A stretch of DNA of 64,000 bases from a virus (IMGVR_UViG_3300028887_000083:1-64000), one strand, 5' to 3'; positions 3,279-36,088 are shown, numbered from the stretch's first letter. The notes: generated by a model from the letters alone, not told the origin. Numbers and translations: made by a program.

Positions 3279-4415
3279 TTATTCCTTTCCTATCTCATTA
3301 TCTAAAATAAAAGCGTTGAACTCATCCCACGGTGTGTATTCATCTATATCCTCATCGTCATGGACTCCAAATTTGGAAACATAGCCCTCAAACGGCTCAC
3401 CTACCAACTCAACATATTTTGGATTGTTGATAACTACATAAGACATTCCATTGCCACGTATCGGTGAAGCGGCATCAAAGTCAATATAAGGCGAGAGAAG
3501 GTTATGGTTTATGTCAATGAAGTTATATTTACCGTTTTTCTTTACCATAATAAAGTCATTAATGCGTTTGTTAAGCGCTGAATCAGTCTTGCCTGTATCT
3601 TGAAATTTATCAATATCTTTTCCATAAAAAGTACGACCATCGACATCGTTGAAAATAGTGTCCACTGTATCCTGAGTAAACACATCGTTTTTCCAAGTCT
3701 TGCCGCCATCAGTTGAATATGCAATAGGGAGTATATTCTTAAAGTCACGCACAACCGAGACGTGTCCGTCATGACCGCCATAAAATATAAATCCTGCAAC
3801 ACCATGTTTAATCAACTCATTGTCACCTATACGTGTCCATACCCTTAAGACGTTTTCACTTGTTCTACCTTCGATACGAGTTAAACCATCCCATAAACCC
3901 GAACGTTTGAATTTTTCACATTCCTCTTTTCCGAAAAACATGTAAAGTTGACTTTCAATTCGCCAATTCTCACCATGTACTTTCTGTGCAATCTCTTTGT
4001 TATATATCAAGAAGTTTTTGAATTTACTGAGTACAATCATCTTGATGAAAGTATCACCATATATTCCTTTCTTGACATTATCATTAGATGAAGAAAGACG
4101 ATAAGTTGAATAGACGCCCGGTCCATACATGTTGCCCGCCTTTGCGCCTGTAAAAGCCCTGTCAAAACCGTTCTTGAATATGGAAGGAACGTTTCTGCGG
4201 TCGGTTATCTGATATATAACAGGAAACCCACAAACATATTCTTCCTGAGTCTTGCTGTCAAACCTGCTATTATTCTTATCTTTAAAGTCATCAACCGTCA
4301 ATTCCTTTTCACCCTCTTTCTGTTGATACAGTTCATCGACTTCCTCATTAAGAGTGTAAGAACCACCTTTTGCGGGATTATAGTTATTTATGAAAATTAA
4401 TTTATCTAAATTCAT
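3279..4415 (-). CDS. PARP/ART-fold ADP-ribosyltransferase-like protein
   Basis: YQIT...SIFKNGF...GNMYGPGVYS resembles the PARP-type NAD-binding signature (HGT...I...GF...G.MYG.GVY), with Gln at the His position; C-terminal WG-repeat-like KKNGKYNFID. Confidence 0.6.
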   Translation of the reverse strand: MNLDKLIFINNYNPAKGGSYTLNEEVDELYQQKEGEKELTVDDFKDKNNSRFDSKTQEEYVCGFPVIYQITDRRNVPSIFKNGFDRAFTGAKAGNMYGPGVYSTYRLSSSNDNVKKGIYGDTFIKMIVLSKFKNFLIYNKEIAQKVHGENWRIESQLYMFFGKEECEKFKRSGLWDGLTRIEGRTSENVLRVWTRIGDNELIKHGVAGFIFYGGHDGHVSVVRDFKNILPIAYSTDGGKTWKNDVFTQDTVDTIFNDVDGRTFYGKDIDKFQDTGKTDSALNKRINDFIMVKKNGKYNFIDINHNLLSPYIDFDAASPIRGNGMSYVVINNPKYVELVGEPFEGYVSKFGVHDDEDIDEYTPWDEFNAFILDNEIGKE

Positions 4416-15474: not shown

Positions 15475-16188
15475 ATGAAACAGACTATCAATCTTGACGA
15501 AAATAAATTCCGTGAACTTATCAAGGAAAATGTTAGACAAATTCTGAATGAAGCCGAAAACGGTGGTTGGGTTGTTGAAACAAGTGAAGCTGAAGAAGCT
15601 TATAATTTTGCGGCACAAATTTTAGGTAATGAAGAACTTAATCAAGCAATTGTCAGGGCAATGTCAAATGAAACACTTGCACAAATCCTTGCATACCTTT
15701 TCCGTATGTACAACCTGAAAGAATGGGGAGACTATAAAGCGAAAATGGATGGTTTAAATGATTATGAAGAAGACATGTTTATCAATGAGACACTGAACGA
15801 ATATGAGGGTATGGATGACAGTTGGAGTTACGCCGCCGTCTTCGGTGAAAACCAAAGGGATATTTACGACATGCTTTGGCAGGTTAAACTTGCCCTTCAG
15901 AAAAAAATCAAGAGGGGTGTTGAAATTAGAAAAGACATCCTTGCAAATTCGTCGGTAGTTCGCAGGGCTGCGCAAATCACCTTGAAACGTTTCAATGAAT
16001 ACAATAAAGAAGTGGGTGAAGAACCATTCGATATGGATAATGAGGTTAAACGTGGTTTGAGAGAATACTATGCAGAGAAGATTCTCAACTGGATTAAAGA
16101 AGAAGAGTGGAATAAGCAAAACCAATCAACCGACGAGACTATCAACGAGACACTGAAAAGGATTTTCAAAACAATCAAAAACCAATAA
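15475..16188 (+). CDS. Hypothetical protein with conserved N-terminal leader
   Basis: MKQTINLDENKFRELIKENVRQILNE; repeated INETL motifs. Confidence 0.75.
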   Translation: MKQTINLDENKFRELIKENVRQILNEAENGGWVVETSEAEEAYNFAAQILGNEELNQAIVRAMSNETLAQILAYLFRMYNLKEWGDYKAKMDGLNDYEEDMFINETLNEYEGMDDSWSYAAVFGENQRDIYDMLWQVKLALQKKIKRGVEIRKDILANSSVVRRAAQITLKRFNEYNKEVGEEPFDMDNEVKRGLREYYAEKILNWIKEEEWNKQNQSTDETINETLKRIFKTIKNQ

Positions 16189-16212
16189 CAGTATATTATT
16201 TCGTATTGTAAA

Positions 16213-16307
16213 CAAAAGCGGATTTTTCAATCCGCTTTTTCTATTTTCGCTATGTGGATGTTACACTAAAAAACTACGGCTAATTGAGACAACCGCCGTA
16301 GTTTTTC
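16213..16307. terminator. Two terminator hairpins between convergent genes
   Basis: AAAAGCGGATT..AATCCGCTTTT and AAAAACTACGGC..GCCGTAGTTTTT. Confidence 0.75.
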
Positions 16308-16327
16308 GAAATATGTAAACAGACGTC

Positions 16328-16816
16328 TTAGAAAGTCAGTATGCAGTATGTGGGCTGAAGTGTCAACTCGATTGTTGCGAGGTCATCCGAGTTGTAGTCC
16401 AATTCACCGAACTTTGCGTCGGTTATCTGACAGCCTTTCAGTATCCACTGCGATACAGCTGTACCCGTCGGGTCAACCATCTCAAGGATAAGGTCACGCT
16501 TGTAGGCAACTGCATAACCCATACGTCCCGTTACACTCTCTGCGTGGAGACGCACCCATTCCATGACAGCCTGCGAAGCTGAAGGTCCGATTGGGTCTTT
16601 CAACGAAATCGAAATGGTGTCCCATTTGTAACGTCCCGCAACATAGGTCGAGGTGTTCATGAAGGGTATCTCAGTGTTTCCGATGTTGATTGAAGGTCTC
16701 GAGGCAGTGCTCACCCACCACTCCTGTATTCCAAGGTCGGAAGGAAAACGAACCAAAAACCTATTTTTACGTAATGGTTCGTATTCAATGGGCATTTTCA
16801 AAATTAAATCGTTCAT
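16328..16816 (-). CDS. Tail tube protein (T4 gp19-like)
   Basis: YEPLRKNRF...RPSI...YVAGRYKWDTISI...DPIGPSASQAVMEW...YKRD...W.L.G...FGELDY. Confidence 0.92.
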   Translation of the reverse strand: MNDLILKMPIEYEPLRKNRFLVRFPSDLGIQEWWVSTASRPSINIGNTEIPFMNTSTYVAGRYKWDTISISLKDPIGPSASQAVMEWVRLHAESVTGRMGYAVAYKRDLILEMVDPTGTAVSQWILKGCQITDAKFGELDYNSDDLATIELTLQPTYCILTF

Positions 16817-16866
16817 ATTAAAAATTTTTTAGTATATTTATTTCTGTAATTATAAATATCACAAAA

Positions 16867-17052
16867 ATGAAAAAAGAAAAAAATTTAGAAAAGTTTATTG
16901 AGAAGTCAAAAAAAGTTCACGGAGACAAGTATGATTATTCTAAGGTAGAATATGAAAACAGTACAACACCTGTATGTATAGTTTGTCCCGAGCATGGCGA
17001 ATTTTTACAAACACCCGTGGTACATGTAAAGGGTTTGACACAGTTAAATTGA
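16867..17052 (+). pseudogene. 5' fragment of a DUF723/Hef-type homing endonuclease, cut off by the IS607 left end
   Basis: FIEKSKKVHGDKYDYSKVEY...CIVCPEHGEFLQTP..H..G repeat stops before the expected GCPxC, at GGG 17031-17033. Confidence 0.75.
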
Positions 17053-17122
17053 AAAATAAGAAAAAATATGAAACTTTTATAAATAATATGTAAACTTTTT
17101 CTTTTAATGCAATATTTATAAT

Positions 17123-17326
17123 ATGGAAAGAAAATTAAAACAAGCAATGGAGAACGCACCAAACGCAAAATATAAAGTTGTTGAAGTCACCAAGGACTAC
17201 TACAAACTCGAAAACGGTGACATCTTCGAGCATACTTTCGATATAGACAATAACATCACTGTCGAAGAGTTCCAAGCAATGCTCGACAACGCAAGAAAAA
17301 TAATGGAGAACATCATCGATGAATAA
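17123..17326 (+). CDS. Small hypothetical protein inside IS607, overlapping the tnpA start
   Basis: 67 aa ORF preceded by AATATTTATA. Confidence 0.7.
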   Translation: MERKLKQAMENAPNAKYKVVEVTKDYYKLENGDIFEHTFDIDNNITVEEFQAMLDNARKIMENIIDE

Positions 17327-17957
17327 CGGTCTGCTTAACATAAAACAAGCATCTGACTACCTTGGTGTGTCAAAAGACACATTGAGGAAGTGGGACAAGA
17401 ACGGTAAACTTAAACCACTGAAGACAATCGGTGGGCATCGCAGATATTCCGTTCAAGACCTTGACAAGTTTGTCGGGAAAGAAACTACGGAAGAACGGGC
17501 AACCGACGTTATTTCGTGCGCTACATATGCGAGAGTTAGTTCAAACGAGCAGAAACAAAAAGGCGACTTGGATAGACAGTCGCAAAGACTCTCCGAATAT
17601 TGTGCAAAGCAGAACATCCACGTCACGCACATCATAAAGGATGTTGGAAGCGGATTGAACGACAACCGAAGTGGGTTCAACAGGCTGACAGACCTAATCA
17701 TTAGCGGTAAGGTTAATATGCTTGTGATAGAACACAAGGACAGACTGACGAGGTTCCAGTTCAACTTCATCCACAAGATGTTCGAGAGTTACGGATGTAA
17801 GGTCATTGTGCTGAACGGAATGGACGTGAGCAACACCGAGGAGTTGACCGCAGACATGATGTCTCTTTTGGCAAGTTTCAGCGGGAAGTTCTATGGTAAA
17901 CGCAGTGCGGAAAGAAGAAAAAAGAAGCAAAATAAAGATGAAAATAAGATTTTATAA
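17319..17957 (+). CDS. tnpA: IS607 TnpA serine recombinase (MerR-type HTH + resolvase)
   Basis: LGVSKDTLRKWD...GGHRRY; YARVSS; DLDRQ; DVGSGLN; EHKDRLTRF; EELTADMMSLLASFSGKFYGKRS. Confidence 0.97.
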   Translation: MNNGLLNIKQASDYLGVSKDTLRKWDKNGKLKPLKTIGGHRRYSVQDLDKFVGKETTEERATDVISCATYARVSSNEQKQKGDLDRQSQRLSEYCAKQNIHVTHIIKDVGSGLNDNRSGFNRLTDLIISGKVNMLVIEHKDRLTRFQFNFIHKMFESYGCKVIVLNGMDVSNTEELTADMMSLLASFSGKFYGKRSAERRKKKQNKDENKIL

Positions 17958-18078
17958 CACACCGAATAGTTGGTGGTATGTTGGAATGGGATATAGAAAA
18001 TACCACTGGTTTTATATCAGTTTTCTAACAAAAACAATAACCCTCTATTGGGGAAAAAACACAAAATACATACCTTGA
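17938..18078 (+). CDS. 46 aa aromatic-rich ORF between tnpA and tnpB
   Basis: MKIRFYNTPNSWWYVGMGYRKYHWFYISFLTKTITLYWGKNTKYIP; overlaps the tnpA end and stops just before the tnpB ATG. Confidence 0.55.
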   Translation: MKIRFYNTPNSWWYVGMGYRKYHWFYISFLTKTITLYWGKNTKYIP

Positions 18079-18079
18079 A

Positions 18080-19339
18080 ATGTTAAGGGCAATTAAAATA
18101 AGGTTATATCCAAACAGGGAGCAGGAACTGAAACTCAACAAGGTTTTGGGTTGCTACCGATTTGTCTATAACCAAATGCTTGCCCTTAAACAGCAAGAAT
18201 ACAACGAAAACAAGAAATCATTGGGACTTACCGACCTTTCGAAACATTTTCACGGAACGTTGCTGAAAGATGAACAATACGCCTGGTTAAAAGAACAGAA
18301 CACCAAAGTGATGAAGCAATCCATAAGACAGATGCTTTCGGCGTATGACAAGTTCTTCAAACAGCACAACGGATTCCCGAAATTCAAATCAAAGAAGGAT
18401 AGACAGTCGGCGTTGTTTCCGTTGGAAGCAATATCGAAGGGAAACAAATTTGACGAAAGAAAGATAACATTGACGCAACCATTAAAGGATATTAGGTTCA
18501 GATGTTCGGACCTTTACTTCAAGAGGCTTCAAACATACAGGGATGGTATAAGATGTGCTACCTTATCGAAAACCAAGAGTGGTAACTACTTTTTATCCAT
18601 ACTTGTTGAATTGCCACAAAAGGAAGCCGTGAGATTTGGACAGACGGATGCACATGTTGGCATTGACCTTGGAGTCAAGGACTTTGTAATCACAAGCGAC
18701 GGAGAGGTGTTTGAAAATAGGCACTTCTTCAAGAAACAAGAGAACAAGGTTGCGAAACTACAAAGGCAATTAAGTAGGAAGCAGAAAGGTTCGAACAATC
18801 GGAACAAACAGCGTGTTAAGATTGCAAAGGCATTTGAGAAACTTACCAACCAAAAGGAAGCGTACATACATAGTGTGGTGAATGGGTTACTTGCTTATTA
18901 TGATGTCATGTTTATGGAAGACTTGAATGTGCAAGGTATGTTGAAGAACCATAAGTTAGCCAAGGCGATACAGGAGATTGGGTTGTATAGGTTCAGACAG
19001 ATACTTGAATACAAGGCAATGGACAACTACAAGGAAGTGGTGTTTGTCGGTAGATTTTATCCAAGTTCGAAGACATGCCACAAGTGCGGCTACGTCTACA
19101 AGGGCTTGACCCTTGGCGAACGTGAGTGGACTTGCCCCGTGTGCGGTGAACATCATGAGAGGGATTTGAACGCTGCGATTAATATCCTTGTTGAAGGTGA
19201 AAGAATAATAGGGTCCCGTAGACCCGAATTCACGCCTGTGGAGAACCCAACCGTGGACGAACGCACGGAGACGTGCCTAAGAAGCGGCGGTTCGTCGAAA
19301 CAGGAAGCGGAAACTGATGGGAATCACAGGTTTTCATAG
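18080..19339 (+). CDS. tnpB: TnpB RNA-guided endonuclease
   Basis: KIRLYPN...RFVYN, GIDLGVK (RuvC-I), MEDLNV (RuvC-II), CHKCG...CPVCG zinc finger, RDLNAAINI (RuvC-III); catalytic D/E/D present. Confidence 0.97.
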   Translation: MLRAIKIRLYPNREQELKLNKVLGCYRFVYNQMLALKQQEYNENKKSLGLTDLSKHFHGTLLKDEQYAWLKEQNTKVMKQSIRQMLSAYDKFFKQHNGFPKFKSKKDRQSALFPLEAISKGNKFDERKITLTQPLKDIRFRCSDLYFKRLQTYRDGIRCATLSKTKSGNYFLSILVELPQKEAVRFGQTDAHVGIDLGVKDFVITSDGEVFENRHFFKKQENKVAKLQRQLSRKQKGSNNRNKQRVKIAKAFEKLTNQKEAYIHSVVNGLLAYYDVMFMEDLNVQGMLKNHKLAKAIQEIGLYRFRQILEYKAMDNYKEVVFVGRFYPSSKTCHKCGYVYKGLTLGEREWTCPVCGEHHERDLNAAINILVEGERIIGSRRPEFTPVENPTVDERTETCLRSGGSSKQEAETDGNHRFS

Positions 19340-19373
19340 GTTTCCGTGTACGGTTTTATAAGGTATGGGATTG
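19205..19373 (+). ncRNA. Predicted TnpB omega/reRNA scaffold plus guide
   Basis: GC-richer, structured 3' tail of tnpB (e.g. GCGGAAAC...GTTTCCGT stem) ending at GTACGG 19353; guide would start TTTTATAAGGTATGGGATTG; boundaries inferred. Confidence 0.6.
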
Positions 19374-19407
19374 TGGTCTTTATAAGTATATTTGGAAAAA
19401 ACAATAA
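19354..19407 (+). pseudogene. 3' fragment of a Hef-type homing endonuclease
   Basis: Translates FYKVWDCGLYKYIWKKQ*, homologous to YYKIYNCGLVRYVWRKS* at the end of 35600..36088. Confidence 0.75.
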
Positions 19408-19487
19408 AAAAATTTATTGAAAATATTGTTTTATTTTATTTTTATAGTATATTTATAAATGAATAATAACTTAAAACAATAAAAATT

Positions 19488-21200
19488 ATGAATGAAAACA
19501 AACTTTTAACAACAAGTGAAGTTGCAAAGAAATTGGGTGTGACGCCTGATTGTATCAGAAAATGGGATGAAAGCGGTGTATTGAAAGCCGATTACACAAC
19601 TGAAGGTGGACACAGGAAATACAAGGAGTCCACGGTGAACGAATACTTGGAAAAAGATACTTTGGGTAGTTTTAATGTAATGATGACAAATGTTAGGGAG
19701 GAATGGGCAAAGAAAAAATATGTAGATTTGTCAGAAAAAATTGAGGAAAGAACAAATTCATATTTGACTGATGAAAAAAACAAAACATGCATGCCTGTTG
19801 TGAGATTGGGTGATGATGACACTATTGCCTTAGTAAAAGATGGTTTTATAGTAAGAACCGGTTTTTACCTTTCCGGACATCCTTTTTTAAGCGACGCCAA
19901 GTATACTACTGACATGAAAACGCGGTATGAATATATGTCAGCTTTAAATGGTAAATCTAATCCTACATTAGAAAAGTGGATGGAATATGATATTGATAAT
20001 GTGTGGGCATATATAAATTGGGAGTACTATACTGTTAAAGATTTTTCTTTTCAAAGATTAAGTTCCGAACAATTCATAAAAATAATTTTAGAAGAAAACT
20101 TTGAGGGGATAATTCATAACCATAAAGATGAATTAAAATCAAACAAATATTCGGTTCAAGGATATGAAAGGTATATCACTTGTTTTGCAAAACAGGTGAT
20201 GGATTACTATCTTATCAAACATCATGATGAGTTCGATTATGATAATGAGGATTTTCGGACATGGTTTAAAAAGGGAGACTATGCAGTACTTCGTGTTATT
20301 TTTAAAAGTGGGATTTACACATTCCGTTTTGAAAATAATTCATCCAATTGGATGAGCATTCATGTTTTTGATGAATGTAAGTTCAACAAAATAATGAATG
20401 CTTTTAAACATAATCTTATAAAATGTGAACTTTCAGATAGTAGAGTTGGTTATGTGGATGATATTATTGACGAGGTATTCGGTGACGTGAAGGAAGATGA
20501 AGATAGTGAAAAAAGTGATATTATTGTTGATGCATCATTCATGGCACGTGTGGAGGGATTCAACCAAACGGTTGATATAAGTGAGAATGATATGTTAAAA
20601 TTAGGTGATAAAATGAATAATTTAGAGTGTGTATTTTTGGATGAAATGAGTAAAAATGGCATAGTATGTGTAGATGATACAACCCCCATTTCATTTGCGC
20701 TCGGGCGGACTGATAAAAAAACTGACATCGAGGTCGGAGGTTTAAAGAAATGGCAAACAAGATTACATGTAAAACATACCAAGGAATATGATAATGATAA
20801 GCAAGCATATCTTCTTAAAGCATTGAAAGAGAAACTTGATACATGCAAATACCTTGTATTGGATGAGAACTATGAGACCAAGTTTATCGAACCTAATACA
20901 GATTTGAATGATGAAAACAAGGTGTGGAAGGAAAATGAACTTAAACATCTTGACTTTCCCATCATACATGAGTTTAAGGACAATGCAGAACATAATAGGG
21001 TTGTGAGACGAGTTGTATTTTGTCCGTGCTGTGGTAATACCCTACATAGCAAAACCCCAACGATGTACAATCCTTTCTCAATGGAAAGTCAAGCTGTGTG
21101 TGTATGTGACCGATGTGGAAAAACAGTCAAAACTGAACATGCGTATCCTCGTCTTGTATTTAAAGATGTAAACGGAGATGACTTGAAAGTTTGGATGTAA
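19488..21200 (+). CDS. MerR/IS607-type HTH fused to an unknown domain with C-terminal Zn ribbon
   Basis: LLTTSEVAKKLGVTPDCIRKWDESG...TEGGHRKY; no YARVS resolvase motif; CPCC...CDRC near the C-terminus. Confidence 0.75.
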   Translation: MNENKLLTTSEVAKKLGVTPDCIRKWDESGVLKADYTTEGGHRKYKESTVNEYLEKDTLGSFNVMMTNVREEWAKKKYVDLSEKIEERTNSYLTDEKNKTCMPVVRLGDDDTIALVKDGFIVRTGFYLSGHPFLSDAKYTTDMKTRYEYMSALNGKSNPTLEKWMEYDIDNVWAYINWEYYTVKDFSFQRLSSEQFIKIILEENFEGIIHNHKDELKSNKYSVQGYERYITCFAKQVMDYYLIKHHDEFDYDNEDFRTWFKKGDYAVLRVIFKSGIYTFRFENNSSNWMSIHVFDECKFNKIMNAFKHNLIKCELSDSRVGYVDDIIDEVFGDVKEDEDSEKSDIIVDASFMARVEGFNQTVDISENDMLKLGDKMNNLECVFLDEMSKNGIVCVDDTTPISFALGRTDKKTDIEVGGLKKWQTRLHVKHTKEYDNDKQAYLLKALKEKLDTCKYLVLDENYETKFIEPNTDLNDENKVWKENELKHLDFPIIHEFKDNAEHNRVVRRVVFCPCCGNTLHSKTPTMYNPFSMESQAVCVCDRCGKTVKTEHAYPRLVFKDVNGDDLKVWM

Positions 21201-35552: not shown

Positions 35553-36088
35553 ATGGATACGTATGAATTCATAGTTAGGTCCAAGGCAATACACGGAGAA
35601 TGGAAAAATATCATATACAGGGTTTCAAATCTTCCACTGTTTATATTGGTTGCTTTTATAACGAAAGTATGGTAGGCGTTATGTCGTTTTTAAAAACAAA
35701 TAAAAACACCGATGAATGGGAACTGACAAGATTTGCCACAGATTATCACTATTTATGTTGTGGTATTGGGGGTAAATTATTCAATTACTTCATCAAGAAT
35801 TACAACCCTGAAGAAGTAAAGTCGTTTGCTGACAGGAGATGGACATCTGTAATTGATACAACACTCTACACAAGGCTTGGTTTTCAAGTGGACAAGATTT
35901 TACCGCCTGATTATTATTATACGAGCAATAAAGGTGATTTAATACATAAGTTCAATTTTAGAAAACAGAGAATGAACAAGAAATATGGTTACGATTTGTC
36001 ATTAACTGAAAGTGAGATGGCGCATATGACAGGGTATTACAAGATATACAATTGTGGGTTGGTTAGATATGTGTGGAGAAAATCTTAA
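35553..36088 (+). pseudogene. Internally deleted Hef-type homing endonuclease; C-terminal Mom/GNAT-like domain open from 35600
   Basis: ATG 35553 gives MDTYEFIVRSKAIHGE (start of a DUF723 repeat), joined out of frame to HIQG...WELTRFAT...SFADRRW...LGF...YNCG. Confidence 0.7.

Follow-up and report, generated by a model that had tools for sequence, protein, structure and literature searches.

An apparently functional IS607-family TnpB element within the remains of a Hef-like homing endonuclease gene in a phage genome

In the published IS607 systems, the guide of the TnpB nuclease is the flank just past the right end of the element, the scaffold of the guide RNA (omega-RNA) ends ...CGG, the target-adjacent motif (TAM) is the G-rich target of the recombinase, and the right-end junction is spared, differing from the TAM at position -3, according to the passages considered here (PMC11061315; bioRxiv 10.1101/2023.11.20.567912; PMC13565253). 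For the C. botulinum IStron (CboIStron), TGGG is given as both target and TAM, with a scaffold ending UCGG and the G at -3 as the discriminating base (bioRxiv 10.1101/2023.11.20.567912), and TAMs of AGGAG or GAGGG are given for IS607 TnpB proteins (PMC11061315). TnpB insertion sequences in virulent phages are described as ISCaje1-4 of the Campylobacter phages CP220 and CPt10; their positions vary among close relatives, and putative homing endonucleases are found in these phages as well (PMC2853527). The DNA analyzed here, referred to as the window, comprises the first 64 kb of the 119,911-bp IMG/VR virus record IMGVR_UViG_3300028887_000083, which has a completeness rating of 33%. With high probability, it contains a functional-looking IS607 element in a wrecked gene for a Hef-like homing endonuclease, the loss within this gene was made by the element, and the guide of the element is endonuclease sequence (Table 1).

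The endonuclease gene is oriented divergently from the tail tube gene and lies upstream of it. Its left part belongs to an open reading frame (ORF, 16867-17052) that encodes MKKEKNLEKFIEKSKKVHGDKYDYSKVEYENSTTPVCIVCPEHGEFLQTPVVHVKG, followed by LTQLN*. The DUF723/Hef-type N-terminus read here by the initial annotation was upheld at the level of phage endonuclease families, with PHROG matches at about 1e-10 (phrog_4605 1.4e-10, phrog_681 1.6e-10, phrog_559 2.2e-9), but the DUF723 label itself stays under the Pfam cut-off (E 0.002, 18.5 bits compared to 20.9); the remnant breaks before the second cysteine pair of the repeat. By tblastn, the left remnant has matches in 720 phage records.

Among 34 related loci, an endonuclease gene is located divergently beside the tube gene in six (L022, L024, L027, L030, L035, and L038). 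The gene had been expected to be continuous at this locus in relatives, and it is: intact in L024 and L027, and continuous with another C-terminus in L022. The L024 and L027 proteins have a length of 553 and 552 amino acids (aa), end in ...GFYKVWDCGLFKYVWKKPAVE and ...AHKIWDCGLYKYIWKKED, respectively, and consist of four zinc-finger repeats (DUF4379 1.1e-12, DUF723 1.2e-10), a restriction-endonuclease-like middle and a C-terminal domain; the nuclease domain of L027 matches MTES_1575 at 1e-5, under the cut-off. Both fall into phrog_559 (4.1e-136) and phrog_3339 'homing endonuclease' (2.6e-91), and full-length relatives (coverage of at least 80%) were found in 133 named phage records, some of them labelled 'homing endonuclease' or 'Hef-like homing endonuclease'.

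The left remnant is 73% identical to the N-termini of L024 and L027, and the right remnant is, over the last 16 aa, 87.5% identical to L024 and 81% to L027, in agreement with the Hef-type C-terminus that had been assigned to the right flank. A search of the 120-kb record with the L024 protein returned 16879-17037 (residues 4-56, 72% identical, E 2.6e-22) and 19348-19404 (residues 532-550, E 2.5e-6), and the two remnants are therefore not chance matches. Between them, 1,435 bp (residues 56-533 in L024 and L027 coordinates) have no counterpart in the window. The locus has lost the nuclease domain, three of the four repeats and all but a small part of the C-terminal domain; of this GNAT-like domain (...WDCG..KY.W), only the last 17 residues are kept. 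The two halves are one base out of frame: the GG at 17032-17033 represents codon positions 1-2, and the T at 19354 is position 1 of a TTT codon. The missing middle, the broken frame and the GG at both junctions, all part of the initial annotation, are supported.

A second endonuclease remnant is present at 35600-36088 on the plus strand, among large tail- and baseplate-like genes. It is a 162-aa ORF that consists of the C-terminal GNAT-like domain only, ends in GYYKIYNCGLVRYVWRKS* and is 53% identical to residues 387-550 of L024 (E 7.6e-61).

The ends of the element were determined by comparison with related copies, obtained by a protein-seeded scan of IMG/VR (16 loci, TnpB identity 47-88%) and a wider scan seeded with a conserved block of 19 nt (80 loci). 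An IS607-type tnpA-tnpB element had been annotated with a left break at AAAGGG|TTTG and a right end after GTACGG, and both boundaries hold at 17033|17034 and 19353|19354: AAAGGG covers 17028-17033 with the T at 17034, and GTACGG finishes at 19353. On the left side, the copies are similar from GGG|T onward, the next positions being N4-AAC-N-GTTAA. Among 13 complete left flanks (a fourteenth is interrupted by a contig end and lies outside this count), AAGGG was found seven times and GAGGG, GGGGG, TGGGG, TAGGG, ATGGG, and TTGGG once each, all of them reading GGG|T. On the right side, the window and 12 loci can be aligned up to ...TATACGG / GTGTACGG and diverge directly after it, with ACGG in 12 of the 13 right ends and ACGT in one; in the wider scan, all 19 loci fitting the right-end pattern read TACGG|T. 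The base directly beyond the right end is a T in 13/13 and 19/19 copies, and the element itself also begins with a T, so that either the target motif reaches GGG|T or the crossover does not take place exactly at the assumed GG.

One related copy, L007, is a scarless simple insertion into the D-loop of a tRNA-Thr gene (2353-2370 / 4273-4326). When its left flank through GGG is joined to its right flank after ACGG, a tRNA-Thr(tgt) is rebuilt across the joint, and the element boundaries are therefore exact to the base. Insertion at GG without a target-site duplication is thus evident for L007, a relative, and not for the copy in the window. Terminal inverted repeats are absent, the sole end-to-end inverted pair (I19) being 12 nt long at 83%. 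Members of the IS607 family move via an excised double-stranded circle. No further copy was found in the 120-kb record by BLAST, TnpB domain search or covariance model. Two of three goat-gut runs from one study (X2-X4, contigs matched at a 90% likeness threshold), namely X2 and X3, contain a copy with 7 differences in 1,153 nt that starts at 17029 and has other left and right flanks, which suggests recent movement between phage genomes. The goat-gut contigs have loose ends after 19354. Neither the joint 17033->19354 nor a circle junction was found in the contigs of X2-X4 or of the bovine-gut run X1, and such contigs, which drop rare variants, are uninformative on excision.

The coding content is in line with an IS607-family element that, as judged from its sequence, is apparently functional. 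In TnpA, Pfam places the Resolvase domain at residues 68-206 and HTH_17 and MerR at residues 5-52, and the catalytic domain matches the IS607-family TnpA structures 6dgc (9.6e-28) and 6dgb (2.8e-18) with YARVSS aligned. TnpB contains the Pfam domains OrfB_IS605 (1.2e-21), Cas12f1-like_TNB (1.5e-22), and HTH_OrfB (1.3e-18). Among solved structures, its best match is the AI-designed nuclease 9yyg (E 9.9e-63), with ISDra2 TnpB second: residues 3-372 align to 8exa/8bf8 (E 4.9e-52), and both CxxC pairs are in place. GIDLG, MEDLN, and HERDLN(AAINI) stand opposite GVDVG, TEHLK, and HDRDEN of 8exa, columns that we take to hold the active-site residues of ISDra2 TnpB.

The 147 nt leading up to the right end have a common fold with 26 predicted pairs in an alignment of 12 sequences (A1), 16 of these pairs showing compensatory changes. 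A covariance model built from this alignment (R1) has a single match in the 120 kb, at 19207-19353 (150 bits, E 1.1e-26). The tnpB gene runs through this scaffold (19207-19339, the last ~44 codons); this differs in L010, L011, L015, and L019, where the scaffold comes after a stop and a short insert. Searches of 16000-20500 with Rfam at E<=1 matched neither RAGATH-18 nor a group I intron, and the sole match was a weak L20-leader. As the flank past a scaffold ending in ...CGG is the guide in the published systems, the predicted guide starts at 19354. By its position (19354-19373) it is homing endonuclease coding sequence, as had been claimed. The 20-mer is unique in its own record at up to 3 mismatches, and no match within 3 mismatches exists in the remnant at 35600-36088. 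The element follows the published IS607 pattern also at its junctions, the left one reading GGG and the right one ACGG. By analogy with those systems, and from the left-flank counts, the guide would be read from the flank, and the 5′ TAM would correspond to the target motif.

Table 1. Features of the element, the endonuclease remnants and the adjacent tube gene in the window.
Feature	Position	Strand	Basis or remark
Tail tube gene	16328..16816	-	Phage_T4_gp19 1.9e-6; phrog_4542 tail tube 1.2e-30; synteny anchor
5′ remnant of Hef-like homing endonuclease gene, 55 codons + GG	16867..17033	+	Most of the first zinc-finger repeat, to H-V-K-G
Target motif AAGGG in the left flank, putative TAM; last GG = recombination core	17029..17033	+	13 left flanks; analogy to TGGG of CboIStron
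IS607-family insertion sequence, 2,320 bp	17034..19353	+	Left end, orf67, tnpA, tnpB, omega-RNA, right end
Left end, non-coding, conserved motif T-N4-AAC-N-GTTAA	17034..17122	+	Left ends aligned by eye
orf67, acidic protein of 67 aa	17123..17326	+	Upstream of tnpA in related loci
tnpA, serine recombinase with N-terminal MerR-type helix-turn-helix (HTH)	17319..17957	+	Pfam Resolvase 2.4e-24; phrog_6620 1.7e-56
tnpB, RNA-guided nuclease, 419 aa	18080..19339	+	Pfam; phrog_506 3.9e-117
omega-RNA scaffold, conserved and structured, ends at the right end (...GUGUACGG)	19207..19353	+	12-sequence alignment A1
Predicted 20-nt guide TTTTATAAGGTATGGGATTG, endonuclease codons F-Y-K-V-W-D-C	19354..19373	+	Position beyond the right end (TnpB rule)
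3′ remnant of the Hef-like gene above, final 17 codons + stop	19354..19407	+	Reads FYKVWDCGLYKYIWKKQ*

Regarding the origin of this arrangement, we infer that the middle of the endonuclease gene was lost through the element itself. Along one route, insertions at two GGG|T sites would have been followed by recombination between the copies; along a second route, the recombinase would have linked one end of the element to the other GGG|T site. In the comparison with L024 DNA, the left junction is the GG of the glycine codon in H-V-K/R-G, and the right junction ACGG|TTTTATAAGGTATGGGATTG corresponds to TTGGGG|TTTTATAAGGTGTGGGATTG, its GG|TTTTATAAGG matching TTGGGG|TTTTATAAGG. Both junctions are located at GGG|T, the insertion motif of the element family, which argues for an element-made event over a random deletion combined with a lucky insertion. 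The adjacent deletion between two GG sites that was initially proposed fits this structure, but it is one of several possible routes. In the goat-gut contigs of X2-X4, which represent a phage with 45 differences in 735 nt, the window is tracked over 16300-17034; after 17034, 57 other letters follow and then the second endonuclease repeat. A closer empty site was sought via the codons for QTPVVHVKG, with 0 matches in IMG/VR, and the lone metagenome match (L130) was rejected as an unrelated chance match.

Once in place, the omega-RNA would carry a guide of ~16-20 nt past 19353, with which TnpB would cut wherever the guide sequence follows a motif ending in GGG. The element-less joint AAGGG|TTTTATAAGG... 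would be the first target, and after the cut the element would be restored by recombination (restorative homing). The element's own right-end junction would be spared, as it reads ACGG (C at -3), not GGG. Where co-infecting phages carry GGG plus the sequence, as L024 does with TGGGG and one mismatch, their intact endonuclease alleles might be cut too, but the account does not require this function.

Several points weigh against this account. The left site of L024 reads AGAGG|A, not GGG|T, and the right site of L027 is without a GG. For the putative ancestral AAGGGT at the left site, the goat-gut contigs, all from one study, are the single source. The two routes are indistinguishable and neither was observed, and a literature search revealed no report of an adjacent deletion by an IS607 element. 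From the wider scan, 61 of the 80 loci fall outside the right-end pattern and were left out of the right-end count. Apart from the record, the full assembly is backed by run X1 alone, which is possibly its own source. Cleavage by TnpB and the TAM are predicted by analogy with the published systems, as are the transcript, the 3′ end of the RNA and the length of the guide.

The most durable alternative, although an unlikely one, is that of a hyperparasite with the endonuclease gene as its homing site: in mixed infections, TnpB would cut the conserved C-terminal codons of intact alleles, and repair templated by the genome with the element would swap the endonuclease gene for the element. A degenerate scan of IMG/VR for FYK[VI]WDCG codons resulted in 24 loci, none of which matches the guide 20-mer exactly; two differ at one position, 16 at two, four at three, one at four, and one at five. 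GGG immediately 5′ of the target is present in only 4/24 loci. The best target is the intact L024 allele, with one mismatch (position 12) behind TGGGG, and one natural copy of the family, L166, is inserted at TGGGG|T. The dominant motif is nevertheless AAGGG (7/13 left flanks), and single TAM changes abolish cutting by ISFba1, as stated in the cited part of the report (PMC11061315). Initially, the guide had been proposed to target a conserved coding stretch and to direct cutting of intact alleles in other phages. The conservation stands for the peptide but not for the DNA, and for the cutting the L024 near-match is opposed by the lack of exact matches and the prevalence of AAGGG.

The distribution of the endonuclease gene bears on the same alternative from both sides. 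With carriers making up 6/34 relatives, mixed infections of carriers and non-carriers are plausible, but the other 28 relatives lack the gene at the locus and hence the target. A comparable contact was found in L145 (~640-1250), where the right end ...ATATACTG (TG, not GG) abuts codon ~3 of another, shorter endonuclease gene (KKKTTEQFIKEAQKVHGDKYDYS...) that has no start codon. Endonuclease homologues within 2 kb are nevertheless limited to 3/80 loci of the wider scan and 0/16 of the earlier ones, and tRNA genes adjoin copies of the element no less often (L007, L011, L205, L210, and L211). In L011 (2865-2938 / 4303-4332), with the same junction in L211, the left flank is a complete tRNA-Lys and the right flank a 3′ tRNA fragment, so that the flanks are mismatched and L011 is a candidate second case of deletion; for the L011 empty site, only two element-bearing contigs were found. 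In the simplest view, insertions last where phage DNA is dispensable, and most likely the endonuclease gene served simply as such DNA tolerating an insertion.

Less likely still is a prior ordinary deletion, e.g., between GGGT...GGGT repeats, with a later simple insertion at the resulting AAGGG|T joint. Free-standing endonuclease genes commonly decay, as the remnant at 35600-36088 also illustrates, and an AAGGG|T joint would be a perfect target. This order of events nevertheless requires the element to have landed exactly on an older deletion joint, whereas an element-mediated event predicts what is seen, i.e., the family's recombination motif at both breakpoints; the L011 copy has mismatched flanks likewise.

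Somewhat further down in probability, the flanks could stem from two neighboring endonuclease genes, in which case more than 1,435 bp and other genes would have been lost as well. Clustered copies do occur in relatives (L022, 4249-5901 and 1601-3298; L030 with 14 repeat matches). The two remnants share their orientation, however, and L024 and L027 each have one gene beside the tube gene that matches at the N-terminus and at the C-terminus with the identities given above. A joint 17016->19387 in an X2 contig also links the repeat region to 19387, weakly, with 25 letters on one side. That the assembler placed a repeated element between unlinked pieces is very improbable: related copies are abundant in similar samples and the X2-X4 contigs break at the element ends, but a 62,229-nt Logan contig of X1 (possibly the same data) spans 16300-20000 with 0 differences, and both flanks are derived from the gene expected at this locus, in the right order and orientation.

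Taken as an element-made loss, the locus represents a base-resolved natural collision of two selfish nuclease systems in a phage genome. An IS607/TnpB element could then gain a guide without a simple insertion, a 1.4-kb loss having brought new sequence to its right end, which bears on the natural change of OMEGA guides. Going further, recombinase activity or recombination between sister copies might re-aim the guide by deletion, here at a conserved codon block of the endonuclease family, and the element might home into the endonuclease genes of co-infecting phages and erase them. This extension is unlikely; if true, one selfish nuclease parasitises another. The locus further offers a compact and, by its sequence, apparently active TnpB, an RNA scaffold with good support, a predicted motif of 5 nt and natural test targets in AAGGG and TGGGG versions. 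It also introduces an IS607 lineage that resides in phages, possesses a conserved third gene and miniature derivatives, and favors tRNA and endonuclease genes, a pattern that is expected if only insertions in dispensable phage DNA survive. Current understanding is not overturned by it.

The third gene, orf67, lies between the left end and tnpA and had been overlooked in the initial annotation. It recurs 5′ of tnpA in 5/16 related loci (L007, L008, L009, L012, and L021) and therefore belongs to the element. Its stop overlaps the start of tnpA, to which it appears to be translationally coupled. The protein has relatives in 23 protein clusters with 24 invariant columns, three clusters being named 'hypothetical protein' and the others having no informative name. 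Only sub-threshold Pfam matches (E 0.026-0.031) and no PHROG family were obtained, and an AlphaFold2 model (mean predicted local distance difference test score 74.7) gave no Foldseek match in the PDB at E<=0.001. The miniature derivatives, found in IMG/VR as L150, L166, L186, and L190, consist of a left end, the RNA scaffold and a right end without genes, with the left end ~50-130 nt upstream of the conserved RNA block; each of them would bear its own guide.

Downstream of the endonuclease stop, by 81 nt, begins a gene for a 570-aa protein (19488-21200, plus strand) with C-terminal cysteine pairs. Over the first 55 residues, it shares 40% identity with the HTH of TnpA from the element (E 3e-10); beyond the HTH, no family was found, including a protein atlas look-up, and no match exists in L024 or L027. 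The GC content is 0.39-0.49 within the element, compared to 0.26-0.33 in the flanks. The relatives of the window are contigs of 200-550 kb and one window protein also occurs on a 364,702-bp contig, and the phage is therefore large. Run X1 contains the whole stretch and may be the source of the window. No near DNA match was found in named phages, and a distant DNA search of these revealed only a part of tnpB, 66% similar to Prevotella Lak phages.

Compared with the IStron of C. botulinum, as far as the cited passages describe it, the element shares the HTH serine recombinase, tnpB on the same strand, a GG core at both ends, a G-rich left motif that equals the TAM (here the predicted one), a scaffold ending in CGG, and the contrast at -3 (ACGG/GGG here, TCGG/TGGG there). 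Scarless insertion is common to both, seen here for the relative L007. The element differs in that no group I intron was found in the range searched, orf67 is present in addition, the 5-nt motif is mostly AAGGG, and it resides in a phage; furthermore, the flanks of the window copy represent two sites separated by 1,435 bp, not a single site. With TnpB of the ISFba1 type, which uses a RAGATH-18-derived RNA, it shares a 5-nt G-rich TAM (GAGGG in 4/22 strains there) and a guide of 20 nt located 3′ of the scaffold, both predicted here, while RAGATH-18 was not matched and the scaffold includes the 3′ end of tnpB instead of lying wholly outside the coding sequence, as the consulted part of the report has it (PMC11061315).

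From ISDra2 TnpB (8exa, 8bf8, 8h1j), with which RuvC motifs, zinc-finger cysteines and an omega-RNA overlapping the 3′ end of the gene are shared, the element is distinguished by its serine recombinase and GG ends, ISDra2 being an IS200/IS605 element with a Y1 transposase. The motif of ISDra2 is TTGAT. With the Hef-like free-standing genes (phrog_559/phrog_3339), the remnants have in common the zinc-finger repeat at the N-terminus and the very end of the C-terminus. The type member of this family is presumably Hef of phage U5. The location of the endonuclease locus between conserved genes and its patchy occurrence in 6/34 relatives resemble free-standing homing genes as portrayed in the consulted part of a further report (PMC13565253). 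ISCaje1-4 belong to IS200/IS605, and nesting in an endonuclease gene is not described in the cited passages (PMC2853527). A literature search, limited to listings and the cited passages, found no IS607 element within a homing endonuclease gene. TnpB elements in phages and the biology of IS607 are already known, and the element in the window is a new and unusually well-resolved member.

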